Shown: positions 7,219 through 40,683, counted from the stretch's first letter. The stretch: 64,000 nucleotides of DNA from an uncultured Lentisphaerota bacterium (GCA_903896925.1 CAITZM010000016.1:859-64858); one strand, 5' to 3'. Made by a program: numbers and translations. The notes: generated from the sequence alone by a model not told the origin.

Positions 7219-7249
7219 GGTTGCTCCTGTCGCCTGTGACTCCCGCAAG

Positions 7250-7300
7250 TTTTCCAGGGATTGGAAGCCGAAACCGTCGTTTTTTCCAAGCATTGGAAAA
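7250..7300. promoter_or_regulatory. Pair of palindromes TTTTCCAGGGATTGGAAG and TTTTCCAAGCATTGGAAAA with centres about 32 bp apart, 30-80 nt upstream of the Tat-protein start
   Basis: Read directly in the 7219..7336 intergenic gap. The second site has perfect 8-bp arms TTTTCCAA/TTGGAAAA. Confidence 0.45.
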
Positions 7301-7336
7301 GCCCGGGCACAACGCGCAGCGCATGGTTGCTGAAAC

Positions 7337-10283: not shown

Positions 10284-11135
10284 TCAAACACCCGAGGAGG
10301 AGGTGAAACCGCCGTCCACCGCCACGGTGATGCCCGTGACGAAAGCGGCGCGCTCGTCGTCGAGCAGCCAGCACACGGCGCCCAGCAGATCCTGCGCCTC
10401 GCCCAGGCGCTTCATCGGCGTGTGGGCCATCACGCTCTGGCCGCGCGCCGTCAGGCCGCCGTCCTCGGTCAGGAGGATTTTGCGGCTGCGGTCGTTGGCA
10501 AAGAAACCGGGCGCCACGGCGTTGACGCGGATGCCGGCGGGCGCCAGGTATGCGGCCAGCCACTGGGTGAGGTTGACCACCCCGGCCTTGGCCAGGGAGT
10601 AGGCGAGATTCTTCGTGAGCGGCCGGTAGCTGTTCATGGAACCGAAATTCACGATCGCTCCCCGGCCCTGATGCGCCATCTCACGGCCGAACACCTGACA
10701 CGGAATGAGCGTGCCGATGGTGTTGAGCTCGATGACGTCGAGCAGCCGGTCCGGGTCGAGATTGAAGAAGCCGCGCATGTTTTCCGGTTTGGCGTCGCCG
10801 ATCTCTGCGGGATCGAACTCGGTGGTGGTCGTCACCGCATCGTTACGGTTGCCGCCGGCGCCATTCACCAGCAGCGCGCATGGACCCAGTTCTTGGGCGA
10901 TGCGCTGGCGTGCGGCCTCGACCGCTGCCGCATCGGTGACGTCCACGCTAAGCGGCAGGGCGATGCCGTTGGCGGCGCGAATGCGTGCGGCGACCGTCTC
11001 CAGTTTTTCCATGGTGCGGCCGAGCAGGGCCACCCTGGCGCCCAGCCGGGCGAGTTCGATGGCGATGGCGGAGCACAGGGTCCCGCCCGCGCCGGTCACC
11101 ACGGCGGTTTTGTTATGGAAGATGTTTTCGTTCAT
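10284..11135 (-). CDS. SDR-family NAD(P)-dependent oxidoreductase; candidate SDR-type D-mannonate/fructuronate oxidoreductase (UxuB-like)
   Basis: The Rossmann motif TAVVTGAGGTLCSAIAIELARLGARVAL and the SDR catalytic region YSLAKAG are present. It sits between the hexuronate transporter and GH genes in the uxaC/uxuA locus. The uxuB assignment is an inference from context. Confidence 0.75.
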   Translation of the reverse strand: MNENIFHNKTAVVTGAGGTLCSAIAIELARLGARVALLGRTMEKLETVAARIRAANGIALPLSVDVTDAAAVEAARQRIAQELGPCALLVNGAGGNRNDAVTTTTEFDPAEIGDAKPENMRGFFNLDPDRLLDVIELNTIGTLIPCQVFGREMAHQGRGAIVNFGSMNSYRPLTKNLAYSLAKAGVVNLTQWLAAYLAPAGIRVNAVAPGFFANDRSRKILLTEDGGLTARGQSVMAHTPMKRLGEAQDLLGAVCWLLDDERAAFVTGITVAVDGGFTSSSGV

Positions 11136-11138
11136 GGC

Positions 11139-12437
11139 TCAGTGCTCCTGTGGGCTGTTTGTTTCACGTAAGCGTTCGATCCGGCCGATCCCAAACACCA
11201 GTGTCAGGCACGCCAGCAAGGGGACGATGCCGACAATCCATAGTACCGGCCCATAACCGGCCTTGTCCACCAGCAAGCCCGCGATATAGGTGAACGCTGC
11301 GCCGCCCAGGCTGGAGCCCATGCCGGTCAGCCCGACGGCCGTCGCGAGGGTCTGCGTCGGGAAAATATCCGCATGCAAGGCGTAGATGTTGGCGCTCCAC
11401 ATGCCGAAGCCAAACGTCGCCACGCACACCCACGCCAGCGCCGTCACGGGCGTGGCCGCGCCGACCACCATCAGGCCGGCGCTCATCATCAGCCCGCCGC
11501 ATACCATGACGCTCTTGCGGGCAAAGGTGGCCCCCAGTCCAAGGGCGAGCAGCCGGTCGGAGCCCATGCCGCCGACCAGCTTGCCCACATCCACCGCCAG
11601 ATAGGGGATCCAGCCATAGAAGCCGATTTCCTTCAGCGAAAAGCCGCGCGCCTTGCTCAAATAATCCGGCAGCCAAAACACATAAAACCACCATACCGGC
11701 GTTGCAAGCATCCGCGTCGCCAACATCCCCCAGACCGCCCGGGTGCCGATGATGCCGCGCAGCGCGGCGAAAAAGGTTCCGCTCTGTTGCGGCGCGGGGC
11801 CCACCTCCGCCAGCACCACCGCGCGGTCAGCCGGCGACAGCCAGGCGTGGTGTTCCGGTTCGTCATAGATCATCAGCCAGGCCACCAGCCACACGAAGCC
11901 CAGCAGGGCCGTCCCGGCAAAAGCGGCCTGCCAGCCAAACTGCAACGCCAGCAGCGCCACGAGCGGCGGGGCCAGGACGGCGCCCAGGGCCGCGCCGCTA
12001 TCGAAGACTGCCATCCCCATGCCGCGGCGGTGGGGCGGGAACCAGCGGGCCACGGTCTTGGCACCGGCGGGGAAGTTGCCCGCCTCGGTCAGGGCCAGCA
12101 GGCCGCGGAAAATACCCAGGCTCAGCGCGCCGCGCGCCAGGGCGTGCGCCAGGGCCGAGAGCGACCAGCCGACGACGAAGACATTGAAACTGCGCCGGAT
12201 GCCGATCCTGTCAATGAGCATGCCCGCCCCGAGCTGGGCAACCGTGTAGGCGAGCATGAACACCATGGTGATGGTGCCGTAGGCCTCGCTGGTGAGTTTC
12301 AAGTCGATCCGCAGGGTCGGCAACAACACCGAGAGCGCCTGCCGGTCCACATAGTTGATGGCCGTGGAGAAAAACAGCAGGCCGAGGATCAGCCAGCGCA
12401 AGCGGGTGAGCGAAATCTGTCGCGGCACAAGGATCAT
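11139..12437 (-). CDS. exuT: MFS transporter, ACS family (hexuronate transporter ExuT-like)
   Basis: The track ORF 11139..12527 was trimmed to the ATG at 12437 (MILVPRQISLTRLRWLILGLLFFSTAINYVDRQALSV). INYVDRQ and TEAGNFPAGAKTVARWFP are typical of ExuT/ACS-family transporters. 12 TM-like hydrophobic segments. Confidence 0.75.
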   Translation of the reverse strand: MILVPRQISLTRLRWLILGLLFFSTAINYVDRQALSVLLPTLRIDLKLTSEAYGTITMVFMLAYTVAQLGAGMLIDRIGIRRSFNVFVVGWSLSALAHALARGALSLGIFRGLLALTEAGNFPAGAKTVARWFPPHRRGMGMAVFDSGAALGAVLAPPLVALLALQFGWQAAFAGTALLGFVWLVAWLMIYDEPEHHAWLSPADRAVVLAEVGPAPQQSGTFFAALRGIIGTRAVWGMLATRMLATPVWWFYVFWLPDYLSKARGFSLKEIGFYGWIPYLAVDVGKLVGGMGSDRLLALGLGATFARKSVMVCGGLMMSAGLMVVGAATPVTALAWVCVATFGFGMWSANIYALHADIFPTQTLATAVGLTGMGSSLGGAAFTYIAGLLVDKAGYGPVLWIVGIVPLLACLTLVFGIGRIERLRETNSPQEH

Positions 12438-12577
12438 AAGGTTTGGTTCTTTCCTGTATCCAGGGCTTGAGAAAAGGCGCTGACGGTTATCCGGGGTTTG
12501 GAAACTGCTGCATGGGAATTTCCACATCTTGGGGGAATAGGTGGTCCCATTTTCGAGCCCTTGGGAAACCGATCGAG

Positions 12578-12770: not shown

Positions 12771-14270
12771 TCATGGTGTTACGTCCTTCCGCCCCATGGC
12801 TTTGGGCGACAATATGATCTTGTTACCCGTGACCGTCAGATCGCCCGCGCCGTCGCTCGTTTCGCAAAATAAGGCATCCACGCGCTTGACCGAAACAATT
12901 TTCTCGCCGGGGTTGAGTGTGATTTCGCTCGCATCGTTAAGAAAGACCACGAACAGCTTTTGCGTCTTGGGTTGCCGGGAATAAATGATGTTCTCATCCA
13001 TCCGGCTGTTGGCGCTCGTATAGGCTGATCCCGTGAATGAGCGGTTGGCGAGCGGAACGCCGTTCAGGTTGTCCCAGTTGGCCACCACCCGGATCAATTG
13101 CAGCCAGTTGGGCACTTCGCTGATTTCGTGCATAGGCGTCTTGTCGCCTGTACCGCTCAAACGGCCGAACCAGTTGAACCAGGCGCCATTAATACCCGCC
13201 TTGGCGGCGATGGTCAGGTTGTTCTGCAGATCGTGGTTGTCCGGCGTGTCGGAGCCCACCTGATCTTTCTTGATCAACCCCGATTTGAACATGCGGGGAT
13301 CATCCACAAACTCGGTTCCGATGGACCAGGGCGTGTGGCCCGACTCTTGGGCGATCAGCGCATGGGCAAACAACTGGGTTTGGATCGAAACATCCAACTT
13401 CGCTATGGCGGCAACCCAGTGAGCGATCGGATAGTGCTCGAAGATGAAACCCAGTTTGCGCTCGGGGAATTTGGCCATGGCCGCTTGCTTGACGGCGTTG
13501 AGATAGGCCACCTTTCCCTCGAGATAGGTTTTGTATTGATGAACCGTGCCCGGAAACTGCGCCGTCGAATCGGTCCCTGTCCAGAAGGATATCGGTTTGG
13601 GTTTGCCGCCGGCGTAGAAAAGCCCGTTGACTTCCGGCACATCCCAGGCGAGACCGCCAAACAAAAAATGGTTTTCCTTTTTTTCGACTTTCGCGGCGAT
13701 GGCCAGCACCTTGCCGGCAAAATAATCAATGACCTTCTGTTGCTGGTAATCCGGCTCAATACAGAAGGCGTCTTTCACGGGCCAGCCGGGGAGCATGTTC
13801 TTTGGGAAAGGCGACGTGGTGTCTTTGAGGGCAAAGTGCTGTTGGTAGGCGGCGATCTGGGCCCGGGTGTAGGTCTTGCTCCCGGATATAGTCCGGTCAA
13901 CACCCAGACCGCTATACGCCAGATATTCCGGCGTTTCCAGATAGAAGTAGAAATCCTTGGCCAGCGGGCTCTTTTCCATGCCGCTTTTATGGAAGACGTA
14001 GGAGTAGCCCATCTGCCGGGCAAACTGCAGGCCTTCGTCCACGTTGCGCGCCCAACAGATGCCGTAATAATGAAACCTCAACAGGTCAGCGTAATCCTTC
14101 GGCAGGACCGGCGCAGGATCGCACGCCAACTGAATGATGTAGGCCTTGCCGTTGGCGGGATAACAGAGCGCATTGCTTTGTGCGCCTGAAGATGCGGCCA
14201 AGGCCGCGCCTGAAACAAAAAGCCCACTCAGAAGAGCTATCGCTTCGCCGCATCTCGTTCTCATAGTCAT
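12771..14270 (-). CDS. Uncharacterised secreted protein, family A copy 1 (paralog of 19597..21087); putative novel carbohydrate-active enzyme
   Basis: 499 aa with a signal peptide. Motifs shared with its paralog: FARQMGY, EPDYQ, FLFGG/FLFAG, HWTGTDS, WFGR, RVVANWDN/RVAAWDN. I recognise no known family. Confidence 0.7.
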   Translation of the reverse strand: MTMRTRCGEAIALLSGLFVSGAALAASSGAQSNALCYPANGKAYIIQLACDPAPVLPKDYADLLRFHYYGICWARNVDEGLQFARQMGYSYVFHKSGMEKSPLAKDFYFYLETPEYLAYSGLGVDRTISGSKTYTRAQIAAYQQHFALKDTTSPFPKNMLPGWPVKDAFCIEPDYQQQKVIDYFAGKVLAIAAKVEKKENHFLFGGLAWDVPEVNGLFYAGGKPKPISFWTGTDSTAQFPGTVHQYKTYLEGKVAYLNAVKQAAMAKFPERKLGFIFEHYPIAHWVAAIAKLDVSIQTQLFAHALIAQESGHTPWSIGTEFVDDPRMFKSGLIKKDQVGSDTPDNHDLQNNLTIAAKAGINGAWFNWFGRLSGTGDKTPMHEISEVPNWLQLIRVVANWDNLNGVPLANRSFTGSAYTSANSRMDENIIYSRQPKTQKLFVVFLNDASEITLNPGEKIVSVKRVDALFCETSDGAGDLTVTGNKIILSPKAMGRKDVTP

Positions 14271-14305
14271 TACCTAAAGGGTTTAGATCTTGTTTCCTGG
14301 TCGGG

Positions 14306-15604
14306 CTAATCAACACTGCGCAGCCGCCACCAAGCAGACTCCACCCAGAAGAAAGAGCAGCAGTGGAGTTGCTTGTAGTCATAGTGCGCGATGACGCGCT
14401 CGACTTCGGCAGCACGCTGTTTCAAGATCACGGGATCGGGCGCCAGCGTGACGATCCAGGCGGCGGAAGCGGGCTCGCGAACCAACGTGCATTCCAAGCT
14501 CCGACGCGGTGACTGCTTCCCCAAGGCGATCAATTGCATGTGGGCGATGTCTTGCGCCTCCTTCTCGGTTTGCTGCGGTTTCCAAAGCGGCATCATGCAT
14601 TTGCGCCAGTCGGGCTCGAAGACCGATCGGTCATGGAGATCGAACTGCTGTGCCAGCGGCAGATATTGAAAGGCCACATCGGCGCTGGCTTGCAGACCTC
14701 GTGCGAAGGCCGCGCGCAGGGTTTCGTCCTGCTCCATGTCCCACAAGGCCCGCAGCGCACCGACGCTGCAGCAGTCGGTCCACGTGTGGTGAAACGCCGT
14801 CTCAAAGAACATGCCTCGTTCGCACATCTCAAGGCCGGTGAGCTTGCCCTTGCCGCCGCGTTTCGCAAGAGCCTCCCTGTAAATCGCATCCCATTTTGCA
14901 TCGCCAGTGAGTGCGTGCATCATTTTCGCCGTAAAGAGCAACCGCGGCATGCCTCCAAATGAGGATGCCGAGAAAGAGCCGCGTCTGCCAAAGGGCGGCT
15001 CTGCGGGCATCGCCCAGTTGAGCCGCAGGATCGTTTCGGCGGTCTCAACCAACTTGGCCACGATGCGCTGGCGTTCATCGGCGGTGGCCAGTCCGGAGTC
15101 GAGATAACGCCACAGGCCGAGGAACCACGGCAAGGTCTGGTCGTTCGAGCCCATGGCATAATGCGATTTCCCATCCGTGCTGACGCCGCGACCGACGAAG
15201 CCCTTCACATCGCTGATTGAACTTAGAAAGAGCAAACCCTCCATCAAGCGCCGCGCCTTGGCCGCATCGTCTGCCGACTTCGTATGACGCCAGCGGTTAA
15301 CCGCCGCGTCCATGTAGAGCCCGCCGAACATCGCGCCGTTCTCGATGGGCGTCCACCAGCCGAGGGCATTGGGTTTGCCCAGGCGGCACTCCTCCGGCGT
15401 CGGCAATGAAATCGAGCCGTCGGGCATGGTGAAATCGAGCATGACGTTCTGCTTGTCGAGGAATCGCCGCCACAGCTCCGCGTGGGCCTGCTCCACGGCG
15501 CCGACCACCGAAGGCTGGAGCGGCGCCGTTGTCTTCTCCGCAGCCGTGGCTCCTGACAGCCGTGCCGCGAAGGCGATGATGATGACAGGATGATAAAGTT
15601 TCAT
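14306..15604 (-). CDS. Uncharacterised secreted protein, family B copy 1 (paralog of 21084..22385); possibly an (alpha/alpha)-toroid hydrolase/lyase-like protein
   Basis: 432 aa with signal peptide MKLYHPVIIIAFAARLSGATAA. Motifs shared with its paralog: AVEQAHAELW, GWWTPIENGAMFGGLY, DQTLPWFLGL, HYDYKQL. Confidence 0.7.
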   Translation of the reverse strand: MKLYHPVIIIAFAARLSGATAAEKTTAPLQPSVVGAVEQAHAELWRRFLDKQNVMLDFTMPDGSISLPTPEECRLGKPNALGWWTPIENGAMFGGLYMDAAVNRWRHTKSADDAAKARRLMEGLLFLSSISDVKGFVGRGVSTDGKSHYAMGSNDQTLPWFLGLWRYLDSGLATADERQRIVAKLVETAETILRLNWAMPAEPPFGRRGSFSASSFGGMPRLLFTAKMMHALTGDAKWDAIYREALAKRGGKGKLTGLEMCERGMFFETAFHHTWTDCCSVGALRALWDMEQDETLRAAFARGLQASADVAFQYLPLAQQFDLHDRSVFEPDWRKCMMPLWKPQQTEKEAQDIAHMQLIALGKQSPRRSLECTLVREPASAAWIVTLAPDPVILKQRAAEVERVIAHYDYKQLHCCSFFWVESAWWRLRSVD

Positions 15605-15694
15605 GACTGGTTTATGCTTCCTACGGTTTTGCTTGGAAGTTGCTCGATGGCGATGGACAAGGGACAGATGCTTTGATCGCCTTGTCGCCGGACT

Positions 15695-17371
15695 TCATTT
15701 GAAGTGGATATCCTCCACATATTCGTTGGTTTTGAAATCCTTGATGGATTCCAGCTTCTTTCCGCCGATGGTGACGTTGTCGAAGGTCAGTTCGCGAATT
15801 TTGCATTCGGCGCCTCCCCTCAGCAGATTGGTTTGGCCCAAGATGCTCGGTTGCAGCTCGATGTTCTGGAAAAGGACCCCGGCCAAGTCTCCGGGACCCC
15901 GGCTCATAGGCTTCGGCCACGCGTAGGGTTTCTCGGTGACCATCTGGAGTTGGAATGCTTCCAGTGTTGGACGTGGATCCGCCACCCGGATATTACGAAA
16001 GACCACATCGCGCCCGCCTTCCCCTTTACCTTCTCCGCGCATGTTGAAGATGCGCCCGCCGTTGTGCCACACACCGCGATTGCGGGCGAAGATCACATCG
16101 CAATCCTCCACCGCCAGGGGCTGACCTTTTTGAAAAGATAAATTGGTTAACAGGAAAACCGATCCGTTGGCATCATGCCAAATGACCAGCCGGCGGATGC
16201 CAAGGCCACAGGGATAGATGGTGTCATCCTGGGTGCGAACGAAACAATCTTCTACCACGGCGTTACGGGATTGGCCAAAGGCGTCGCTGTTGACCCGCCA
16301 GCCCAAGACCTTTACCCAGTGGATCAGCGTGGGACGCATGGCATCGTACTCTGCTGCCGTCCACATGCTGCAGGCCCCATTGGCCGGATTGGCAATGGTG
16401 AGGCCCTCGACCGTGGTGTTATAGGGTCCGTGAATCATGATGGAACGGTAGATTTGGTCGCGATAATGACCTTCTTTACCTCCAAGGACGGGCGGATTCT
16501 GGTAGGCCGGATGAGTCAAGCGGTCGCCCGAGAGCGTCCCGCAACCGAAGATCCGGATATCATGCCCACCGCCCCGGATGCCGGTTCCATGGAGAGTGCC
16601 GTAAACCACTGCATCGCCCGGGATATAATAATTCCTGTTGGTTTGGAGGGGATAGGCGAGTCCGATATCATGCACGCCGGGCAGGAAAGCGAGGGTCTTC
16701 CAGTTGCCATTTGTGGGCGGCATTTCGCCAGGCTTGACGGCCTGCACCGTCGGATCTCCCAGCCGCGGCTTGTCAGGAAAAATGGGATTAGCGAAAATGG
16801 AAAGCCCATGCAGAGGCGGGCCGCTATAGATCTTCCCACTGGGTGTCATGCCCGTGTCCTGGTCACGCATGGCGCCATCAATATCCACCGCCACCAAGCA
16901 GGGTTTCTCGATGTTGAAATAGGCCTTGCCGCCCTTGAGATGAACATTTCGACCGTAGCGCTCCGGATGAACAGTGGCTTTGCGGATGGCCGTGCCGTCC
17001 GCCTTGGCGACTTCCACCTCCACCGGTCCCGCCATTTCAAAATTCACGTAGGAATGACTCCAGCCGCTAAGAACGCGCCAGTAACCCTCTGTAACATTCC
17101 CCCTTCCTTGCGAGCCAACAGCTTTGCTGGCCGTCTTGAAAACGAAAGGCGTCTGCCAGGGCGCGTCGTTGCCAGCCGGTCGCAGGCGCACAGCGTAGTG
17201 ATCGGATGGTGTGAGCCCGGGCACCGGGCCGTAAACGATCAGCTTGCTTGGGGCGGTTTCCGCTACGGCCGCAGAAGACCAACAAGCGCAGAGCTGCGCG
17301 GCGATAACGCCGGCCGGGAGCGCAAGCCGTCGTAGGGTCAACGTGAGGCGGCGGAGGTGGTGTGCTTTCAT
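15695..17371 (-). CDS. Right-handed parallel beta-helix (pectin-lyase fold) protein, secreted; GH28/PL-like
   Basis: 561 aa. Repetitive beta-helix rungs are visible (NTTVEGLTIANPANG, RNAVVEDCFVRTQDDTIYP, IWHDANGSVFLLTNLSF). The start was set at the internal ATG 17371, just after the stop of the upstream LVIVD gene; the track start at 17380 would overlap it by 7 nt. Confidence 0.6.
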   Translation of the reverse strand: MKAHHLRRLTLTLRRLALPAGVIAAQLCACWSSAAVAETAPSKLIVYGPVPGLTPSDHYAVRLRPAGNDAPWQTPFVFKTASKAVGSQGRGNVTEGYWRVLSGWSHSYVNFEMAGPVEVEVAKADGTAIRKATVHPERYGRNVHLKGGKAYFNIEKPCLVAVDIDGAMRDQDTGMTPSGKIYSGPPLHGLSIFANPIFPDKPRLGDPTVQAVKPGEMPPTNGNWKTLAFLPGVHDIGLAYPLQTNRNYYIPGDAVVYGTLHGTGIRGGGHDIRIFGCGTLSGDRLTHPAYQNPPVLGGKEGHYRDQIYRSIMIHGPYNTTVEGLTIANPANGACSMWTAAEYDAMRPTLIHWVKVLGWRVNSDAFGQSRNAVVEDCFVRTQDDTIYPCGLGIRRLVIWHDANGSVFLLTNLSFQKGQPLAVEDCDVIFARNRGVWHNGGRIFNMRGEGKGEGGRDVVFRNIRVADPRPTLEAFQLQMVTEKPYAWPKPMSRGPGDLAGVLFQNIELQPSILGQTNLLRGGAECKIRELTFDNVTIGGKKLESIKDFKTNEYVEDIHFK

Positions 17372-17373
17372 GG

Positions 17374-19563
17374 TTACCACTTTGCAACAAGGCCATCTTG
17401 CAGCTTCGGTACCGGCATGCGCAACACCCCCGCATATCCCAAGGGAATATACACCTGCCCGTTGTGAACTTGAACACGCCCGGGTCTTCCTTCAACGTCA
17501 AATGAAGCAAGCAATCGGGGGGCTTGAGGATTGGCAATGCTCGCAACAAACACTTTCTTCTTTATGTCGTCCACGATGTACACATTCTGGTCATAGCGCC
17601 GGTATTTGCAACGACCATAGCCAGGCCCATAATCACCCGGGATGGCTATTCGTGGCAACGCTTTATCTTTCTCGCTCCCTATGCGATGTGCAGCATCATC
17701 AACAAGGCGGTAATTCAGATGCGTTCCAATCAGCAATTGCCCATTGTCCAGCATGGCCACGCTACTGTTCCACGTCGAGCCTTCATAGGCACTGCCATCT
17801 TTCCGAGGTACAGGTCCGCCATACAGATCGTATCGGTAATAGGGGAAGTTATTATGGGAAGCCAGCGCATAGCGCTTGTCCACGAGCTGGTCGTACATGC
17901 GAAACGCGTACGTACCAAGATCCCGCAGTTTCAAAGAAATGCGGGCAGGGTTGGAAATGTCAACTATTTCAAGGCCGCCGCACTCCAGGAGGGCATATTT
18001 CCCCGGTGGAGGAACCGCCACATCAACAACCGGCGCCCCTGACTTGGAGCGATACCTGCCGAGTAAGGCAAGACTTCCCGCACCGGTATTGCGGTAGATT
18101 GACAAACCGCCGCCGGCCTCGGCCGCCATCACGAGGTCTCCAGATACCCGAACGTTCATCACAATATCCTCACTGGGATATTGGTTTAGAAGTTTCATCG
18201 TGGTGTAATCAACAAGTTGGATGCCACCATGGCCTGCTCCGACCACCATGGTAGTGCCGATAAAATCAACAGACCGGATGTTAAAGGGCGGTTGGTAGAC
18301 AATGCGTGCATCGGGTTTCTTTGCGCGAGTCCCCACGGATACACGTGCTGTGTCCCAGGGTTGCGGAACATGTTCTATTTCTGGCGCAGCGAGAATACTG
18401 ACACCGCCTTTGGGATCGGTATCGGTACGTTTGTTCCCCCAGAGGTTGGCTGCAATGACATATCCTTTGATAACCGCAATACTGGAGGTGTAATCATAGG
18501 TATTGGATGCAAGTGATGGGTCTTCCCCTTTTGTGATCCTGGTCTTCCATGGCACTGGTAGTGTGTATTTGTTCTGAGCGGCAATTGTCGGCGCCGCAGG
18601 ATTTGTAATATCAACAACCAGAACCCCGTTGATTCCATCAGCAACGACGGCGTATTTTCCGGCGATTTCCACGCCCCACCAATCAGGCCCGTGAATGAAG
18701 AAGCGGGGGAATTTCACCCGGCCGCAGAAGCGCGGCCTTTCCGGGGCTGAGATGTCAAATATTTCGAGGCCCCGTCCTTCTCCCCAGCCCGCTTCTCCGG
18801 GGCTCACCGCCTCCTGAGATTTGCCAAATGTGGTGCGACTGTGATGACCGGTGGCGATATAGCAAAAGTCTCCGGCCACCCGTACACCGTCAGCAAATCC
18901 GTCGAGTGGAGCCCGGGCAATTATTTTCGGTTGACGGGGGATGCGGGCATCCACAATCACCAGTTCCATTTCGTGGTGAATGGGCGCATAGACATACCCA
19001 TTGCGTATGGCAACCGATTGCACCTCGCCGACAAAGGTGGTGCTGAGAAACTCAGGCTGCCGCGGATTGCTGACATCAACAAGTTCCAGGCCGAGGCCCG
19101 TGCCCGCAATAGCGAGGATATTCCCGGAGATGGCAAGCCCGGTTGTATTGCCCGAGACATCGGCATCGTAATGGCACAAGAGCCTTGGTGTCTTTGGCTG
19201 GGTAATGTCAATAATATAGACGCCTTTGCCGGGGTCTCGCGCCGACACATAAGCAATGTGATTGGCAATGACAACCTGCCGGCCGCCGACCAGCGGAAGT
19301 TGACCCATAAACTGGGGTCGTTCAGGGGTAGAAATATCTGCGGTAATAAAGGCACCGGAAGCCAGAATGCACAACGTCGTACCATCCACTGCCACCGCTA
19401 TGGTGGTGCCGGTGTGGAGTGATGCAACTTCTTTCATCTGGATTGGCAGGCGGGCTAGATCGCTGGTGGAGATGCGGGTGTCGCCCCCCCCAAAAGCAGC
19501 GCACATGGAAGATAGTATGGCAAAAGAGAGGCAGGCGGCAATTCGAGTCTTATTCATAGTCAT
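17374..19563 (-). CDS. LVIVD-repeat beta-propeller protein, secreted
   Basis: 729 aa with signal peptide MTMNKTRIAACLSFAILSSMCAAFG. Repeated LVIVD-type blades: YIIDITQPKTP, LELVDVSNPRQP, LVIVDARIPRQP, LEIFDISAPERP, VLVVDITNPAAP, LEIVDISNPA. Confidence 0.7.
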   Translation of the reverse strand: MTMNKTRIAACLSFAILSSMCAAFGGGDTRISTSDLARLPIQMKEVASLHTGTTIAVAVDGTTLCILASGAFITADISTPERPQFMGQLPLVGGRQVVIANHIAYVSARDPGKGVYIIDITQPKTPRLLCHYDADVSGNTTGLAISGNILAIAGTGLGLELVDVSNPRQPEFLSTTFVGEVQSVAIRNGYVYAPIHHEMELVIVDARIPRQPKIIARAPLDGFADGVRVAGDFCYIATGHHSRTTFGKSQEAVSPGEAGWGEGRGLEIFDISAPERPRFCGRVKFPRFFIHGPDWWGVEIAGKYAVVADGINGVLVVDITNPAAPTIAAQNKYTLPVPWKTRITKGEDPSLASNTYDYTSSIAVIKGYVIAANLWGNKRTDTDPKGGVSILAAPEIEHVPQPWDTARVSVGTRAKKPDARIVYQPPFNIRSVDFIGTTMVVGAGHGGIQLVDYTTMKLLNQYPSEDIVMNVRVSGDLVMAAEAGGGLSIYRNTGAGSLALLGRYRSKSGAPVVDVAVPPPGKYALLECGGLEIVDISNPARISLKLRDLGTYAFRMYDQLVDKRYALASHNNFPYYRYDLYGGPVPRKDGSAYEGSTWNSSVAMLDNGQLLIGTHLNYRLVDDAAHRIGSEKDKALPRIAIPGDYGPGYGRCKYRRYDQNVYIVDDIKKKVFVASIANPQAPRLLASFDVEGRPGRVQVHNGQVYIPLGYAGVLRMPVPKLQDGLVAKW

Positions 19564-19596
19564 GGTTCAGAGTGTCCTTGGTTGCCCCAGTCATTT

Positions 19597-21087
19597 CTAT
19601 TTTACCGCCATGATATATCCCTTTTCAAGGCCCGCGCTGTTGTGTAGGCGCACCTCATTTCCCTTCACTTCGACATCGCCCAGGCCGCTGGCGGCTTCGA
19701 TGAACAAAGGGTCCGTTTGCTGGATGGTCTCGACCTTCAAGCCCGCCGGGATTTTCACCACGCCATCCGGCCTGAGCCAAACCGCGAAGAGTTTGCCCGT
19801 CTTGGGATGGGTGGACCAGATCACACTTTCGCTGATGCAACTGCCCGGACTGGAATAAGTCTTCCCATCCCAGGACCGTTTGGCCAGGGGGATGCCATTC
19901 CGATTGTCCCAAGCGGCGACCCGGCGCACGAGTTGCAGGCGGGCAGGCACATCGGCAATATTTTTGAAATTGGGCATGTTCCCGGTGCCGCCAAACCGCC
20001 CAAACCAAGCAAAGCAGGAACCGTGGACGGCCGCATGGGCGGCGAGTTCACGGTTTTCCTTCTCAGTAAAGCAGTTCGGGGTTGAGCAACCCACGGCCGC
20101 ATGGCCTTTGATCAGACCCGAGTCAAATATCCGCGTATCGGTGGCGAATTCCTTCCCGGCGCTTTCCTGCAAAAGCAGGTCCGGCATGATCTCCTTCGCA
20201 TCCGGCCGGTTCTTGACCAGCTCCAGCCAATTCTCCCAGATCCGATAAGGCTCCATGATGAACTTGGCTGCGGGAAATTGAGCGCGAGTTTGCGTGAAGA
20301 GGTGGCGATAAAATGCCGCATGGCCATCGCTGACGGTGGCGTATCGAAAAGTTGTCCCGGAGGGCTTATAGGCGCTGTCGGTGCCGGTCCAATGAGCCAC
20401 GGTGATCTGCCGGCCGCCGCCCCCCTTGCCGCCATGAGCTTGCTGCTTGTCCCAAAAATCTCCCGTGAGATTCGGCACATCCCACGCGTATCCGGCGAAG
20501 AGAAAGCGGCGATCCTTCCTTTCCAGCGTCTTCACACGGTGAATAATATGTTCTATGAAGTAATCGATGACCTCCTGGTTTTGATAATCCGGCTCCACCG
20601 AAAACACCGTGGGAGTGAAAAACCAGCCCGTAGCGAGGTTGCCGGGGAATGGCTGGTTGTCTTTCTTGACGAAGTAATGCTCGTATAATTTCCGCTCGCT
20701 GGCGGTGTAGGTCTTGGTCGGATCAAAGTTTCGCCGCACCGGGTAAACCTGATACTCGGGCCCATCCAGGTAAAAACCCAGGTCGGCAGCAAGGGGATTG
20801 GTTTCCATCCCGCGCTGATACATAACAAAGTCATAGCCCATCTGCCTGGCAAACCGGAGGTTTGATTCGACATCGCCGCGCCAAGCGATGCCATAGAAAT
20901 CCCGATAGTCTTTCGGCGGCAACGCATGGGGAAGCGAGGGCTCGGCAGCAAGTCGGCTCACACCGGACAAGAGCAGAAGCAAGCATAAACCAACGGCCAG
21001 TTTAACCGGATGGCCATGGGGGAGTATCGAACCAGCCGCCAGACGGATACTCGCGATCGGCCCTAGAGGTGTAGTCCTCGTTTTCAT
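19597..21087 (-). CDS. Uncharacterised secreted protein, family A copy 2
   Basis: The track ORF 19597..21126 was trimmed to the ATG at 21087 (MKTRTTPLGPIASIRLAAG...), which forms an ATGA overlap with the family B2 stop. By eye it is about 40-45% identical to 12771..14270. Confidence 0.7.
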   Translation of the reverse strand: MKTRTTPLGPIASIRLAAGSILPHGHPVKLAVGLCLLLLLSGVSRLAAEPSLPHALPPKDYRDFYGIAWRGDVESNLRFARQMGYDFVMYQRGMETNPLAADLGFYLDGPEYQVYPVRRNFDPTKTYTASERKLYEHYFVKKDNQPFPGNLATGWFFTPTVFSVEPDYQNQEVIDYFIEHIIHRVKTLERKDRRFLFAGYAWDVPNLTGDFWDKQQAHGGKGGGGRQITVAHWTGTDSAYKPSGTTFRYATVSDGHAAFYRHLFTQTRAQFPAAKFIMEPYRIWENWLELVKNRPDAKEIMPDLLLQESAGKEFATDTRIFDSGLIKGHAAVGCSTPNCFTEKENRELAAHAAVHGSCFAWFGRFGGTGNMPNFKNIADVPARLQLVRRVAAWDNRNGIPLAKRSWDGKTYSSPGSCISESVIWSTHPKTGKLFAVWLRPDGVVKIPAGLKVETIQQTDPLFIEAASGLGDVEVKGNEVRLHNSAGLEKGYIMAVK

Positions 21088-22385
21088 GGTTCCTTGGTTT
21101 TGTTGGGCAGCGCGTAGTAGGCGCACTCGGAGAAGAAGAACTCCGACATGTTGAGCTTCGCATAGTCGTAGTGGCGCAGCGCCCTCTCGATGGCGTCGCG
21201 GCCGGTGCCCTCGCCGGCGAGCGCGACGACCGCCGCCGCCGCGAGCGGGTTCCTCATGTAGCGGGACTCATAACCCTTGCGCGCGCCGCGTTTCGTTTTG
21301 TCGCCGGTTTCCGACAAGCGCTTGGCCTCGGCCTGCGTCGGCTGCGGGAACCATGTCGTGTAGACCGCCCGCCAGTTGGCGTTGCCAAAGACCTTCGTGT
21401 CGTTGTTGTCGAAGCCCTGGTAGGCCTCGATGCTGGCGAGGGCCGACTGGGCGTTGAGGGCCAGTCCGGCGCGGTACTGTGCGCAAAGGGCCGCATCGGT
21501 CTCCAACGCGACGAGTTGCGCCAGCGCGCCTTGAGAGCCGACGTAGATCCACAGCCCGTATTCTTCGATCCCCTTGATCGCCTCGCGATCATGCGGATAG
21601 CCGGCGGCGCAGATCTCGGAGCGCGTCTTCTCGCTCTTCGCGGGCCGCTCGGCGGCGGCCTTCCGGTAACGCTCGAGCCAGACGTTGTCGCCCGTCACAT
21701 CGAACATCGCCCTCAACATGAACAAATACCGCACGGCATCGCGGAACAGATGCCCTTGGAAGCCGCCACGGAAATCTTTCTTGAACGCGCCGTCGCAAGG
21801 ACATTTCCAGCCGGTGGACTCCAGCACGTTCGCGACTGCCTGCATCTTCTGCACGATCTGCTTGCGCTCCGCGTCGGAAGGCAGGCCGCTCTTGCAATAG
21901 GCGTGCAGGCCCAGGAACCACGGTTGCGTCTGGTCGTCGGAGCCGAGCGGATAATGGCAGCGGCCATCGGTGCCCATGCCGCGCGCGATGAAGCCGGGCA
22001 CATCGGAAACCGAGGCGCATTTCACGAGGCCCTCCGCGAGCCGGCGCGCGTTGGCCTTGTCTGCGGCGGCGCCGCTACGGCGCGCGCGCTCGCACATCGC
22101 CGGCAGATACATGCCGGTGAACATCGGCCCGTTCTCGATCGGGCTCCACCAGCCGATCGCGTTCGGCCGCCCGAGCTGGCAGTCCTCGGGCGTGGGGATT
22201 TCGCCGACGTAGTCGAGCATCACACCGTGCCGGTCAATGCGCCTGCCCCACAGCTCCGCGTGCGCCTGCTCGACGGCTTGGAGCGTCGTTCGCGCCGGGC
22301 TTGGTTCTGCCGCTTGTGCTCCAGTCATCGCACCGGCTGCGGAGAGCGCAGCAGCCAACAGCAGCGTACCCGTTGACGTTTTCAT
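21084..22385 (-). CDS. Uncharacterised secreted protein, family B copy 2
   Basis: The track ORF ends at 22412. The start was set at the internal ATG 22385 (MKTSTGTLLLAAALSAAGAMTGAQA, signal peptide), which avoids overlap with the GH10 gene. It shares AVEQAHAELW, GWWSPIENGPMF, DQTQPWFLGL and RHYDYAKL with 14306..15604. Confidence 0.7.
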   Translation of the reverse strand: MKTSTGTLLLAAALSAAGAMTGAQAAEPSPARTTLQAVEQAHAELWGRRIDRHGVMLDYVGEIPTPEDCQLGRPNAIGWWSPIENGPMFTGMYLPAMCERARRSGAAADKANARRLAEGLVKCASVSDVPGFIARGMGTDGRCHYPLGSDDQTQPWFLGLHAYCKSGLPSDAERKQIVQKMQAVANVLESTGWKCPCDGAFKKDFRGGFQGHLFRDAVRYLFMLRAMFDVTGDNVWLERYRKAAAERPAKSEKTRSEICAAGYPHDREAIKGIEEYGLWIYVGSQGALAQLVALETDAALCAQYRAGLALNAQSALASIEAYQGFDNNDTKVFGNANWRAVYTTWFPQPTQAEAKRLSETGDKTKRGARKGYESRYMRNPLAAAAVVALAGEGTGRDAIERALRHYDYAKLNMSEFFFSECAYYALPNKTKEP

Positions 22386-22389
22386 GGCG

Positions 22390-23772
22390 TCAAAATTTGA
22401 TAATCCATTCATTGGGGTTGCCTTTCTTCAATGGGAAGGTTTGCTTCACCGTCTGGCCGCCGGCTTGCGCCGTGACGGTGTAGGTGCCGTGGAAACCGCG
22501 GAAGGCCACGTCGCTGCGCGCCGCGCTGTTGGTCTCCAGCACGGTCTTCCAGTCGTGGTTGATCAGGCGGTCCAAGGCCTCGTAGACGGGCTTGGGCGAG
22601 AAGTCCCGTCGCACGAGCCCGGCGTGCCACTTGTCCTCGCCCTTGGCGGCGGTGCCATCCACGAGGTTCCACCAGCTGATGGCCTCGACGCGCGGATGGC
22701 TGAACCAGAGCCGGTAGAAGTTGCGCGCCACCGTCGCCTGGCTCTGCTCGCCCGCGGGGGAGTCGGGCAGTGCGGGGATGGTGATCTCGGTGATGTGGAT
22801 GGGGCTGCCGAAGTCGCTGTAACGGTCGAGCACCTTGAATAGGTCGGCCGGTGCGAACCGCTTGCCCGCCAGGGTCAACTGCCAGGCCGGCTCGGAGAAG
22901 ATGTGCAACTGCATGCCCAACTCCTCCACGCGCGCGCCGCGATCGAGCATGTCGCGGATCAGCCTGTAGTAAGGACTCCGCTCTGCGCTGAACTCCAGCC
23001 ACGAGTAGGTCGTCGCCTCGTTGAGCATCATCCGGTCCCCCGCGGGGAATTGTGCGGCGGCGCTCAAGGAACGAAACAGGTAATCCTCCGGCAGGTTGAA
23101 CCATTTGTCCGCGAACTTGCCGCGTTCGCAGGGTTCGTTGACCACCTCCCAGCGCGGGATGACCGCGCCATAACGTGCATTGATTTCCGCGATGCGTTGT
23201 TCGGCACGGCGCATGGCCGCCTGCGGGTCGTCGGGCCGCCACTTGGGATACCACTGATGCCACACCAGCGGATGGCCTTTCATGGCCAGGTCGTGTGCGC
23301 GGCAAAACTCGACGACCGTGTCCGGCGGCGGCCGGCGGTAGAGCGGCGGACTGTCCTTGGCGAACCGCGGCTGGCCCGGCTCCGGTTCGAGGTCGGACCA
23401 GTAGAAGGGCACGGTGGCATAATTGAGGAGCGCCGTGAATGTCGCTTCGAAGCGACGGTTTTCCCCGGGCGTCGGAAAACCTCCAAGCATGAAGATGTTC
23501 GCCCCGAACAGGAAGTCATGACGGACCTGCTCAATACGCGCCGTAACGTTGGTCACAGGCCGGCCGTCGGCGCCGGTGAAGCGCAAGGTAACGCCGTCCA
23601 TCCGGTTCGTCCGGATGCCGTCTTCGATGCGGCGCGACACTTGCGGGTCGCTCCAGAGGGTTTGATAAGCCCCACCCGGCGCCGGCTCTGCCGCCCAGCA
23701 GCAGGCACCAGCGGCCAGCCAGGCTGCGGTCAGCCCGGTTTTCAGGGGAGTTTTTCTTTTTCGAAATGTCAT
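22390..23772 (-). CDS. Endo-1,4-beta-xylanase, glycoside hydrolase family 10
   Basis: Trimmed from the track ORF 22390..23841 to the ATG at 23772 (MTFRKRKTPLKTGLTAAWLAAGACCWA, signal peptide). The GH10 catalytic motifs are WEVVNEP (acid/base) and HITEITI (nucleophile), plus LVWHQ. Confidence 0.85.
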   Translation of the reverse strand: MTFRKRKTPLKTGLTAAWLAAGACCWAAEPAPGGAYQTLWSDPQVSRRIEDGIRTNRMDGVTLRFTGADGRPVTNVTARIEQVRHDFLFGANIFMLGGFPTPGENRRFEATFTALLNYATVPFYWSDLEPEPGQPRFAKDSPPLYRRPPPDTVVEFCRAHDLAMKGHPLVWHQWYPKWRPDDPQAAMRRAEQRIAEINARYGAVIPRWEVVNEPCERGKFADKWFNLPEDYLFRSLSAAAQFPAGDRMMLNEATTYSWLEFSAERSPYYRLIRDMLDRGARVEELGMQLHIFSEPAWQLTLAGKRFAPADLFKVLDRYSDFGSPIHITEITIPALPDSPAGEQSQATVARNFYRLWFSHPRVEAISWWNLVDGTAAKGEDKWHAGLVRRDFSPKPVYEALDRLINHDWKTVLETNSAARSDVAFRGFHGTYTVTAQAGGQTVKQTFPLKKGNPNEWIIKF

Positions 23773-24542
23773 CACGGTAGCCCCATGCCCCCGCCCACGA
23801 CGAGATCCGCGCCGGTGATGTAGCGGCCGGCGTCGGAGCACAGCAGCAGCGCCGCGCCGACGCAGTCCTCCGCTTCGCCGAAGAAGCGCAGCGGGATCAG
23901 GTCGCGCACGCGGGCCGCGGTGGCCTCGTCAGCGAGGACGTCCGTGTTGCGGTCGGTCAGGATGACGCCGGGCGCAAGGTTGTTGATCGTGATGCCGTCG
24001 GGGCCGAGCTGCTTGGCGAGATTGCGGACGAGGTTTTCCTGCGCCGACTTGCTGGCGGCATAGACGAGCATGTCGGGGTGGGGGCGCTGCTGCTGGACAC
24101 TGCCGACCGTCAGGATGCGGCCCCATTGGCGGTGCTGCATCCCCGGCGCGGCGGCTTGGATCATGCGCAGCGTGGCGTGGAAGTTCACCTGCATCTGCAG
24201 CTCCGCGTCCGCCTGCGTGATCTGCGCCCATGACTTGCGCAGCTGGACCGAGGCGTTGGCGACGAGGATGTCGAGCGTGCCGAGCGCGGCCACCGCGTCG
24301 GTCACGATCCGCTCCGCCGCGGCGGGCTCCGAGAGCTCGCCGATGACGGCGACGCTGCGGGGCGACAGCTGCTGCACCTCGGCCAGCGTCGCATCGAGGA
24401 CAGGGCCCGGTTTGGTGCCGTGCACGGCGACCGCGGCGCCGCACTCCGCCAGCCCGAGCGCAATGGCACGGCCGATGCCGCGCGACGAGCCGGTCACCAG
24501 CGCGGCGCGGCCGGAGAGGTTGAACAAATTATGATGCGGCAT
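23772..24542 (-). CDS. SDR-family oxidoreductase (KduD/gluconate-5-dehydrogenase-like)
   Basis: It carries the Rossmann motif GRAALVTGSSRGIGRAIALGLAECGAAV and the catalytic YAASKSA. The start is at the ATG 24542 (MPHHNLF), which has aaGGAa about 8 nt upstream; the track start 24560 is possible. Its stop shares one nt with the GH10 start (TGATG). Confidence 0.75.
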   Translation of the reverse strand: MPHHNLFNLSGRAALVTGSSRGIGRAIALGLAECGAAVAVHGTKPGPVLDATLAEVQQLSPRSVAVIGELSEPAAAERIVTDAVAALGTLDILVANASVQLRKSWAQITQADAELQMQVNFHATLRMIQAAAPGMQHRQWGRILTVGSVQQQRPHPDMLVYAASKSAQENLVRNLAKQLGPDGITINNLAPGVILTDRNTDVLADEATAARVRDLIPLRFFGEAEDCVGAALLLCSDAGRYITGADLVVGGGMGLP

Positions 24543-24613
24543 GATGGGTTCCTTTCTCATTCACCTCAAGGCGGGGCGGAGTCATTTCCAGAAGTAGAAG
24601 GGGATTTGTTTGT

Positions 24614-26269
24614 TTATGGTTCACGGGCCGCGACTCCAAATTGCATCGGCGGAGCACCGCGCTGGTGCGCTCCGATATCGGGCGCCTTGCCGGAACAACC
24701 GTCGCTAAAGTTGGGAATCAGTTCGCCGGCGCCGGCGCCGGGGCTGGCGGGATCGAGTTGGAAGACGCCGGTCTTCTTGGCTGTATCAAAACCGGCGCCG
24801 GGCGCATAGCGCGGCTCGCCGCGGACGCCATGGGCTTCCGTACCTGCCGGCACGCGCCCGTTGCAGAGGTCGAAGTCGAAATCGTTGTCGGCGTTCTGCT
24901 TGGCCTCGCTGGCGCTGTAACCTTTGTTTTTCTCGTCGCGGATATGCAGGATATTGTTGCGCGAGACGGTGTGCTTGACGATGCGGTTGCCGCCGAGACC
25001 GCCGGTCGGCAGATACTCATCAGACTGGAAGAGCGTGTTGTGGAAGATGTACTGGTGCCCGGTCATCCAGCCATCGTTGCCGGCAAAACCCATTTTCAGA
25101 AAATAGCCCCCGCCCGCGTTGGGCTGCCACTGGCTGCGCGCGACGATGTTGTTCCAGATATAGAGCGGGCCGATGGAGCACGCCGCGTTGCCGATCATCA
25201 TCATGCTTTGCGTGATGTAGTTGCCCCACACGCGCACATTGCGGCTGCCGCCTTCGACCTCGAGGCCGTCGTCCCAGCAGTGGCTGACGAGGTTGCCGTA
25301 GATGTCGGAGTCAGGGCCGGGCGCGCCCTGGAAGCTGCCGTTGCTGCCGCCGCCGATGCCGTCATTGCACATGTGCTCGAGATCGGAAAAACATTCGTTG
25401 AAGCGGATGACGTGGTTGCCGCCGGCGTTGAAGAGGGAGATATACTGCGGGCCCTGGGTGTGCGTTGGATACTTCGGCTCATACCATGTGCTGCCGTCAT
25501 AGGTCGGATGATGCAGCTTACAGCGCTGGACGATCAGCCGGCGCAGCGTTTTGCAGTTCGAGAAAACTGCGGCGTCGTAGTCGAAACCGAAACCCGTCTT
25601 CGGATTGAGCCGGCCCCAGTCGGAGACGTCGCAGTCCTCGATGACGATGTCGTGGCCGCCCTCGATGCGGATGGCGCCGATGATGCCCTTCTTGGTGTTG
25701 CCGGCCGCGCCCGCCCCTTTGAGCGTGAAGCCGCGCAGGATGATGTTCGAGGCGTTGATCGTGATGCACGCGTCGTGCTGGTGGCGCACGTCCAGCGTCG
25801 CGCCACGGCCGTCATAGACCCGCCATGCGTCGGGCGTGCCGGACTCGGTGATCGCCAGCGGCGTGTTGCTGCTTTCCACGCGCACCGCGGGGCCTTCGGG
25901 AAACTTCTCGCTCCATGTCGTCGCCGTCAGGTTGGTGGTCGTGCGCGTGCCGGCCAGTGTCAGCTCGATGTCATAGGTTTTCGCCGGCGCGAGGTGGACG
26001 ATGCTGCCACGATAGTCCGTCAGACATTCGGCGCACTTGGGAATCGGGTTGTAGCGCATCGGCAGGCCGGTCTTCCACTCCGTGGCGCCCGACTGGCGAT
26101 AGCGCACCAGCACGTCCTTGCCGGCCGCGCCGCCCGGCGGCGACCAATAGAGGCCCAGGCAGTGGAAGGTGGGAATCGCCAGCGGCCCGACCTCGGCGCC
26201 GCCCGCAGGCAACAACGCCAGCAGCAGCCCCGCGCAAACCACACTGGTTGTCAGTACAGATGTTTTCAC
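24614..26269 (-). CDS. Right-handed beta-helix (pectate-lyase-like) secreted protein with an N-terminal beta-sandwich
   Basis: 551 aa with signal peptide MKTSVLTTSVVCAGLLLALLPAGGA. Beta-helix rungs: NASNIILRGFTLKGAG, GGHDIVIEDCDVSDWG, NHVIRFNECFSDLEHMCNDGIGGG. Confidence 0.6.
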   Translation of the reverse strand: MKTSVLTTSVVCAGLLLALLPAGGAEVGPLAIPTFHCLGLYWSPPGGAAGKDVLVRYRQSGATEWKTGLPMRYNPIPKCAECLTDYRGSIVHLAPAKTYDIELTLAGTRTTTNLTATTWSEKFPEGPAVRVESSNTPLAITESGTPDAWRVYDGRGATLDVRHQHDACITINASNIILRGFTLKGAGAAGNTKKGIIGAIRIEGGHDIVIEDCDVSDWGRLNPKTGFGFDYDAAVFSNCKTLRRLIVQRCKLHHPTYDGSTWYEPKYPTHTQGPQYISLFNAGGNHVIRFNECFSDLEHMCNDGIGGGSNGSFQGAPGPDSDIYGNLVSHCWDDGLEVEGGSRNVRVWGNYITQSMMMIGNAACSIGPLYIWNNIVARSQWQPNAGGGYFLKMGFAGNDGWMTGHQYIFHNTLFQSDEYLPTGGLGGNRIVKHTVSRNNILHIRDEKNKGYSASEAKQNADNDFDFDLCNGRVPAGTEAHGVRGEPRYAPGAGFDTAKKTGVFQLDPASPGAGAGELIPNFSDGCSGKAPDIGAHQRGAPPMQFGVAAREP

Positions 26270-26279
26270 GGTTGTCGTC

Positions 26280-27251
26280 TCAGTCGACCGGTATCTTCAA
26301 TGCCTGCATGACGCCCTTGGTGTAGCCGATGGCAAAGAGGCGGCCGAGCGAGCCGTAGCCGGGTTGGTCGTTGGTCTCGCCCGCGAGGGTGGGGACGTGG
26401 TCCACGCGGACCGGGCCGGCAAAGCCGAGCTCGTGGTAGAGCTTCAGCAGCGCGGGCATGTCGGTCGGGCCGTCGTCGTGGAACGTTTCCTCGAACCGCT
26501 GCGCCGTGCCGCGCACGTCGCGGAAGTGGACGAAGAAGATCTTCTTCTGCTCCATGAACCGCCGTGCCCATGCGGCCACGTCGCAACCCATCAGCTTGAA
26601 GTTCGCCTGGCAGAACGTGACGCCGTTGTTTGGACTGGACGCGAGCGCCATCGCGCGCTCGAAGTTCTCCGGCCTGGAGAGGATGCGGGCGATGCCGCGC
26701 AGCACCGGCAGCGGCGGATCGTCGGGATGCATGCCCATGCGCACGCCGGCCTGCTCCGCGACCGGCATCACGCGGCGGATGAAGTAGGCGTAATTCTCCC
26801 ACATCTGCTCCTCGCTGACGGCGCCCGCCTCCGTGAGCGAGGCCGGAATATCGGCGGCGTCGAAACGCGACGTGAGCGCGCCGCCGCGGGTGGGCACATC
26901 GCCGTGCGTGCGGTGCCAGCCGATGCCGGCCATGAAGTTGTAGCAGAGCAGGGGAATGCCGAGCGCGCCCATGTTGCGGAGCATCCTGCAATAGAGTTCG
27001 AGGTCGTCATCGCGCCCGTCGAGGCCGAGCTTGATGCGGCGCATGTCGAACTGGTCGCCTTCAAGCCCATAGACCGTCAACCCGGCGTCGGTGAACCGTT
27101 TCTGGATCGTGCGCAGCGCGTCGAGGTCCCACGGCGCTTTCAGCCCCGTCAGCTCCGGTGCGCACTTGCAGATCGCATGGCGCACGCCCATCTGGCGTGC
27201 GTACTGCCACTGAACGTGCGGCGCCGCCGGAAGAAATTCGGCGATGATCAT
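26280..27251 (-). CDS. uxuA: D-mannonate dehydratase
   Basis: It shares with E. coli UxuA the motifs CYNFM, VRMGMHPDDPP (E. coli VRMAVHPDDPP) and GYGSLGRLFAIGYTKGV. 323 aa, a short form. Confidence 0.8.
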   Translation of the reverse strand: MIIAEFLPAAPHVQWQYARQMGVRHAICKCAPELTGLKAPWDLDALRTIQKRFTDAGLTVYGLEGDQFDMRRIKLGLDGRDDDLELYCRMLRNMGALGIPLLCYNFMAGIGWHRTHGDVPTRGGALTSRFDAADIPASLTEAGAVSEEQMWENYAYFIRRVMPVAEQAGVRMGMHPDDPPLPVLRGIARILSRPENFERAMALASSPNNGVTFCQANFKLMGCDVAAWARRFMEQKKIFFVHFRDVRGTAQRFEETFHDDGPTDMPALLKLYHELGFAGPVRVDHVPTLAGETNDQPGYGSLGRLFAIGYTKGVMQALKIPVD

Positions 27252-29327: not shown

Positions 29328-29330
29328 GCG

Positions 29331-30239: not shown

Positions 30240-30256
30240 GATGCACTCCCGTCTCT

Positions 30257-36000: not shown

Positions 36001-36002
36001 GC

Positions 36003-38534: not shown

Positions 38535-38550
38535 AGAAGTGGAGTTGATT

Positions 38551-40671: not shown

Positions 40672-40683
40672 GCCCGAAAGGAT

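Follow-up and report, generated by a model that had tools for sequence, protein, structure and literature searches.

Glycosidases of the TIM-barrel type carry their catalytic residues after beta-strands, and AGE-type epimerases are cytoplasmic enzymes with a catalytic pair of histidines in the barrel centre. Families that have such folds and lack annotation are common in the glycan loci of the Planctomycetes-Verrucomicrobia-Chlamydiae (PVC) group and of Bacteroidota. Here we describe two protein families, A and B, each with two members (A1 and A2, B1 and B2), encoded in a 64,000-nucleotide stretch of DNA from an uncultured Lentisphaerota bacterium (GCA_903896925.1 CAITZM010000016.1:859-64858), hereafter the window. 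An earlier reading of this DNA (the sequence-only reading) had proposed that A and B are candidate new carbohydrate-active enzyme (CAZyme) families, and that they form an anciently duplicated and retained cassette in which B precedes A. The candidacy is supported at the level of fold by AlphaFold2 and Foldseek, and the cassette failed testing. We consider it probable, with moderate confidence, that A and B are two independent, unclassified, secreted families of glycan-cleaving proteins recruited as accessory parts of a cluster of glycoside hydrolase (GH) family GH10, GH115, esterase and hexuronate genes; our confidence in any particular substrate is much lower.

Two secreted families, each with two paralogues, without a sequence classification

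Calling of open reading frames (ORFs) over the window placed every gene between about 3.4 kb and 32 kb on the minus strand. The order of transcription around families A and B is a GH10 gene, B2, A2, a gene for an LVIVD-repeat protein, a gene for a putative beta-helix protein (BH), B1, A1, and then a major facilitator superfamily (MFS) transporter gene and a short-chain dehydrogenase/reductase (SDR) gene. The six proteins between GH10 and MFS are as follows.

12771..14270, minus strand: A1, family A, 499 aa; signal peptide, predicted (beta/alpha)8 barrel at about residues 42-400 and C-terminal beta-sandwich at about 420-490
14306..15604, minus strand: B1, family B, 432 aa; signal peptide and predicted (alpha/alpha)6 barrel
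15695..17380, minus strand: BH, secreted, 561 aa, putative right-handed beta-helix
17374..19563, minus strand: LVIVD-repeat beta-propeller, secreted, 729 aa
19597..21087, minus strand: A2, family A paralogue, 496 aa from the ATG at 21087
21084..22412, minus strand: B2, family B paralogue, 442 aa, or 433 aa from an alternative ATG at 22385

The descriptive claims of the sequence-only reading about these genes held up well. All four family A and B frames lie on the minus strand where it had put them, the B2 frame opening at 22412, upstream of the alternative ATG. The spacing is as tight as described, because the B1 stop and the A1 ATG are 35 nt apart, and the B2 stop and the A2 start share an ATGA (ccATGAaa). 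Inspected by eye, all four proteins have the signal peptides ascribed to them (short and charged at the start, then hydrophobic, and rich in Ala towards the end), and indeed all six proteins listed start in a signal-peptide-like manner. The relation between the copies is genuine and far above chance: BLASTP aligned A1 with A2 over 452 columns at 40% identity (E=2e-102), and B1 with B2 over 422 columns, likewise at 40% (E=2e-89), both at the low end of the 40-55% previously quoted. Every motif quoted for the two families was found in the translations, and in alignments of orthologues most of them fall on positions conserved family-wide; an exception is the EP of EPDYQ in family A, which is not conserved beyond the close clade.

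Searches of Pfam, NCBIfam and PDB sequences placed neither family, in keeping with the sequence-only reading, which could assign neither to a known CAZy family. None of A1, A2, B1 and B2 matched Pfam-A even at E<=1, and B1, A2 and B2 had no match in NCBIfam. A match of A1 to NF040656 (GYDIA GHMP kinase) covered 49 residues at E 6.9e-4 and scored 18.9 bits against a cut-off of 225 bits, and we treated it as spurious. Searches of PDB sequences with single queries or with family profiles gave no match for A or B, and the B domain of 20 distant multidomain B members had no Pfam match. Literature searches on YPO2471 (see below) and on new GH families in Verrucomicrobia found neither family described. 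As far as Pfam, NCBIfam and PDB sequences reach, we conclude that families A and B are unclassified.

The two proteins encoded between the pairs differ in how well they can be named. The LVIVD protein matched PF08309 in three stretches (E=1.1e-29; 101.9 bits against a cut-off of 20.2), and a literature search on LVIVD found nothing relevant. BH matched GH28 weakly (E=0.097; 12.2 bits against a cut-off of 22.9) and had no match among PDB sequences.

Gene order of families A and B in other genomes

If B and A formed a conserved two-gene module, their genes should occur together elsewhere. We collected 82 B loci (80 from a metagenome scan with the B profile and two from look-ups) and searched a radius of 6 kb around each. 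An A gene was present at none of them, including L081, where the B protein is 89% identical to B1. Conversely, tblastn found a B gene in one of 76 A loci (L003), where it is not adjacent to the A gene. Family B is much the larger of the two, by about tenfold, with 811 clusters at 50% identity (E<=1e-3), and family A gave 47 matches in a word-indexed search, although these counts are not directly comparable. No A domain was fused to B in 150 B representatives. When some 1,160 ORFs from 160 loci were clustered in search of conserved neighbours, the most widespread one reached no more than about 12% of the loci; one large neighbour "cluster" proved to be an antisense-ORF artefact of crude gene calling.

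A single frame joins parts of both families. In L164 (ENA BUCK21-1 scaffold_33677), an ORF of 611 aa at 361-2196, P0027, has the C-terminal 200 residues of an A1-like protein joined in frame to a B2-like protein. Stops lie upstream of the A part, and the B2-like part has no signal peptide and carries GWRSPLANG in place of GWWSPIENG. With a truncated A and a mutated invariant motif in B, it was rejected as evidence of an A-B fusion, and it is probably a rearranged, decaying pseudogene from a habitat related to that of the window.

Closer relatives keep the genes together in a different order. In a 122,846-nt contig whose B2 is 89% identical to ours, the order is GH10-B2-B1'-A2-LVIVD-X1206-MFS; in L161 it is B2-GH10-GH39-BH-A1, and in L003 it is MFS-SDR-B2-X369-X555-A1-BH-GH5. 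Thus, A and B genes share one cluster in all four related genomes, with their partners exchanged, and two relatives keep only an A1-type with a B2-type gene. Other adjacencies are steadier, namely A1 with BH, A2 with LVIVD, and B2 with GH10. BH orthologues adjoin A1-like genes in L003 (85% identity) and L161 (65%), LVIVD lies next to A2 in both the window and the 122,846-nt contig, and B2-type genes stand by GH10 in L161 and in that contig. In L003 and L165, too, B2-type genes come with an MFS and SDR pair. The two members of pair 2 are unlike in GC content at third codon positions (GC3), which is 0.83 in B2, as in the flanking genes, and 0.68 in A2. A1 and A2 are each nearer to Bacteroidota proteins (58% and 56%) than to one another.

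Given the exchanged partners, the steadier adjacencies of other genes, the kinship of A1 and A2 and the difference in GC3, the B-A pairs look secondarily assembled by local shuffling. We conclude that B then A is not a conserved two-gene module, and that the "duplicated cassette" was an evolutionary inference rather than an observation. Without this feature the finding is less special than it looked. Some lineage-specific coupling of B and A may exist. A bolder proposal builds on it: A and B would found two new CAZy families, one a TIM barrel and the other an (alpha/alpha)6 barrel, that act successively on an acidic, uronic-acid-decorated fragment of hemicellulose not dealt with by known xylan enzymes, for example on the 4-O-methyl-glucuronosyl stubs of aldouronic acids, and their repeated independent juxtaposition in this Verrucomicrobiota lineage would reflect this coupling. 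We regard this proposal as rather unlikely, if somewhat less so than the alternatives considered below.

We also observed PF04230 polysaccharide pyruvyl-transferase-like genes in MFS-SDR-B2-...-GH5 catabolic clusters of two Verrucomicrobiota genomes (L003, 14537-16480; L165, 13008-14234), an unusual site for an enzyme of biosynthetic type.

Neighbourhoods and base composition

The genes around families A and B in the window are as follows.

3386-5569, minus strand: GH115-like (GH115, 7e-51)
5566-7692, minus strand: DUF1961 protein
8767-10233, minus strand: GH39/42-like clan-A hydrolase, 32% identical to an L161 gene annotated GH39
10284..12527, minus strand: SDR (10284-11135) and MFS transporter (11139-12527), directly downstream of A1
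22390..23841, minus strand: GH10 xylanase (PF00331, 5e-29), directly upstream of B2 and co-directional
23772..32131, minus strand: SDR, 551-aa protein, UxuA, MFS, BD-FAE-type esterase and MR/MLE (ManD-like) dehydratase

Pfam searches thus bore out the setting given by the sequence-only reading, with GH10, GH115, a clan-A hydrolase, an esterase and hexuronate genes around the four genes. The cluster combines GH10, alpha-glucuronidase and esterase genes with dehydratases of the UxuA/ManD type, which makes it a xylan/hexuronate locus, and the genes at 23772..32131 (BD-FAE 9e-25, UxuA 5e-72, MR_MLE_C 2.5e-53) together indicate hexuronate catabolism.

Several features of the window lie outside the main subject. 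The 551-aa secreted protein (24614-26269, minus strand), between the second SDR and UxuA, has a weak Beta_helix match (E=0.009) and no family; a 554-aa gene occupies the same position in the 122,846-nt contig, and direct comparison rejected the idea that BH and the 551-aa protein are paralogues. In the MR/MLE ORF (30257-32131, minus strand; 624 aa), the enolase-superfamily domains begin at about residue 262, so that either the protein has an unannotated N-terminal extension of 250 residues or the start of the longest ORF was placed too far upstream. Three large ORFs (1029, 796 and 385 aa) at 35961-43235 on the minus strand, where GC is 70-73%, have no Pfam match, and the AT skew is very strong (+0.435) in the final 2 kb of the window (62001-64000).

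The sequence-only reading had asked whether the B-A pair always stands beside xylan or uronate genes. Clusters with GH10 do recur; both families, however, are also found in sulfatase, SusC/D or glycosyltransferase settings. A genome-wide scan with the family A profile gave the 76 loci, from Bacteroidota, Brocadiaceae, Omnitrophica, Elusimicrobia, Planctomycetota and others. Family A stands alongside GH10 in four clusters from two phyla, among them the Bacteroidia operon L008 (GH10-BNR_4-ADP-ribosyl-GH-like-A2-like-DUF4886/GDSL), where GH10 is 58% and the A2-like protein 56% identical to ours. Other Bacteroidota family A genes adjoin SusC/SusD, SASA esterases, a sulfatase, GH106 and GH172, or UxaE/KdgK-type hexuronate genes. 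In the anammox Brocadiaceae, Omnitrophica and Elusimicrobia, family A is multicopy and often in tandem, with three to four copies (L019, L023, L046, L057, L059, L066); Candidatus Brocadia pituitae (AP021856.1; L047, L049) is one example of this expansion. There the genes adjoin GT4-like glycosyltransferases and radical-SAM proteins. These organisms are not known to degrade xylan, which suggests that family A has a part in the metabolism of their own exopolysaccharide or glycoprotein.

Family B is spread through glycan-degradation loci of Verrucomicrobiota and Planctomycetota, where it is annotated "hypothetical". Its neighbours vary: sulfatases and FGE, PF12831 FAD oxidoreductases and esterases occur, as do large beta-helix proteins, a protein resembling alginate lyase or heparinase, and enzymes of GH5, GH38 and GH97. 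It is also fused to GH123, BNR/Sortilin, GDSL esterase, FGE, GT2 and beta-helix domains. Apart from sulfatases, the PF12831 FAD-dependent oxidoreductases are the most recurrent functional neighbour of B, which they adjoin repeatedly (L166 8001-10879, with a 4-nt overlap; L079 5876-8620; B-locus clusters 21 and 23). In P0198, an N-terminal TIM-like domain was considered as a family A domain and rejected; it does not belong to family A and has no Pfam match. From these surroundings, both families would appear to act as versatile glycan-active modules rather than as xylan-specific parts.

GC3 is 0.56-0.76 in five consecutive genes (A1, B1, BH, LVIVD and A2) and 0.79-0.92 in B2 and every flanking gene. 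The low-GC3 stretch therefore measures 8.3 kb (12771-21087), and its right-hand border separates A2 from B2, within pair 2. This dip fits a horizontally acquired island, inserted by chance, from A1 to A2, whose products would be directed not at xylan but at another glycan, for instance one that is sulfated or pectic, or a microbial exopolysaccharide. The occurrence of A genes by GT4-like and radical-SAM genes in Brocadiaceae and Omnitrophica, and the exopolysaccharide hydrolases PelA and PgaB together with GH114, GH168 and GH191 among the structural neighbours of A, point the same way. So do the best relatives of A2, which are from Bacteroidia (55-56%). However, A1-, BH- and A2-type genes recur in the GH10 clusters of three other genomes, including the Bacteroidia operon, which weakens the idea of an island. 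We found no tRNA and, among the scanned ORFs, no Pfam match to an integrase or transposase; border repeats were not looked for. In addition, in L003 and in L161 no gene of the cluster has a lower GC3 than the A1 orthologue, so that any acquisition was not recent. Taken together, we consider an island unlikely.

Predicted folds and comparison with described enzymes

Family A was modelled with AlphaFold2 from an alignment of 44 sequences (pLDDT 90.4, pTM 0.87) and is predicted to form a (beta/alpha)8 barrel followed by a C-terminal beta-sandwich. Its top structural neighbours are GH66, Cwp19, GH36, GH18, GH31, GH168, GH191/GH114-like, PgaB and PelA, so that this is a TIM barrel with carbohydrate-active structural neighbours. 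Enzymes of clan GH-A (GH42, GH53) come close to these in score, so that we assign family A to no clan. Across 74 domains from many phyla, D174, Q176, W399, N401, R410 and Y417 are invariant and position 400 is D or E without exception; conservation is 92% for D210 (otherwise N, 8%), 80% for E309 and 73% for E278 (Q in 18%). D174, D210, E278 and E309 each stand just after a predicted beta-strand, and we infer that they are the candidate catalytic carboxylates. A reading of EPDYQ as the "NEP" of clan GH-A was rejected, because E172 and P173 are unconserved beyond the close clade.

Family B, modelled from 48 sequences of both clades (pLDDT 89.4, pTM 0.89), is predicted to be an all-alpha (alpha/alpha)6 barrel. 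The best Foldseek E-value was 0.01; GH76 came top, followed by cellobiose and glucose 2-epimerases (E 0.012-0.03). R139 and Q156 do not vary among 87 representatives at 50% identity, and D155 (97%), D144 (95%), E371 (93%), E88 (92%), and H148 and Y149 (85% each) are strongly conserved. The active site is probably formed from S153-x-D155-Q156, D144, E88, E371 and R139. Both predicted folds are of a kind well known from glycoside hydrolases and lyases, and neither family has a near relative among solved structures.

Our preferred explanation is that A and B are unrelated accessory components of a xylan/hexuronate utilisation cluster of a Verrucomicrobiota-like bacterium. A would be a TIM-barrel glycosidase with a C-terminal beta-sandwich, hydrolysing by means of carboxylates at the C-terminal ends of the barrel strands, and B would be an (alpha/alpha)6-barrel enzyme, most likely a glycosidase whose substrate is an oligosaccharide made anionic by uronate or sulfate. 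The two would work as independent enzymes of the same degradation pathway without forming an obligate pair, and the two B-then-A juxtapositions would stem from lineage-specific gene shuffling in the cluster rather than from retention of an ancient cassette. That the substrate is the side chains of glucuronoxylan is a guess.

Instead of a glycosidase, B could be a polysaccharide lyase or an unsaturated-uronyl hydrolase like GH88 or GH105, whose products would feed the UxuA, ManD and SDR genes. The unsaturated uronyl hydrolases of GH88/GH105 and the (alpha/alpha)-toroid polysaccharide lyases score below GH76 against B and share no sequence similarity with it, and we think this assignment improbable. 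Still less probable is that one or both families are non-catalytic (glycan-binding, scaffolding or pseudo-enzymes) or that B is an epimerase or isomerase of the AGE superfamily. The variability of E278 and D210 would suit the former, and the position of the 2-epimerases right behind GH76 in Foldseek the latter. However, A and B keep strictly conserved constellations of acidic, polar and aromatic residues across phyla, and B is fused to catalytic CAZyme domains. The resemblance of B to the AGE superfamily in fold is weak, a single conserved histidine, H148, was found in B, and the signal-peptide-like N-terminus of B is at odds with a cytoplasmic epimerase. Least probable is the proposal of the sequence-only reading that B and A are an obligate unit, heteromeric or strictly sequential, with both copies of an old cassette retained, which draws on B standing directly before A twice in the window and once in a close relative (B1'-A2), on at least one A and one B sharing a cluster in all four related genomes and on the equal divergence of both paralogue pairs, but which conflicts with the near-absence of co-occurrence, the B1 orthologue of L081 that stands without A, the lack of a fusion beyond one likely remnant, the swapped partners and the unlike GC3 of B2 and A2.

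What is new here is probably two candidate CAZy families with fold-level kinship to known glycoside hydrolases. Proof of catalysis for either would establish a new family of glycoside hydrolases or lyases. Family B by itself numbers about 800 clusters at 50% identity, and family A occurs in polysaccharide-utilisation loci of Bacteroidota and in many copies in anammox bacteria. Knowing their activities would allow better annotation of how hemicellulose and acidic glycans are turned over in soils, lakes and sludge, and might also provide new enzymes for processing xylan. This would be incremental enzyme discovery with no new biological principle, a solid but ordinary lead with a well-defined target.

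Among described enzymes, family B shares its (alpha/alpha)6 barrel with the GH76 alpha-1,6-mannanases (6u4z, 4c1s, 6shm), and its S153-x-D155-Q156 recalls the adjacent Asp pair of GH76. The likeness ends there: identity is 8-10%, Pfam gives no GH76 match at E<=1, TM is at most 0.46, and the Asp-Asp pair is not a fixed feature of B, since residue 154 is N in B1 and D or E in 50 of 87 representatives (57%). The genes around B relate to xylan, uronate or sulfatases and not to mannan. The putative exported Yersinia pestis protein YPO2471 (PDB 7tem), also compared with B, is itself uncharacterised; the B profile misses it at E<=10, so homology is unproven, and we found no mention of it in the literature. 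Family A is likened to two groups of enzymes. The first comprises the TIM-barrel glycosidases GH66, GH36, GH31 and GH13, which have an Asp nucleophile at beta4 and a C-terminal beta-sandwich. The second group comprises GH114, GH168, GH191, PelA, PgaB and Cwp19, and the placement of the multicopy family A genes by glycosyltransferase and radical-SAM genes resembles that of PelA-, PgaB- and GH114-type hydrolases in exopolysaccharide loci.

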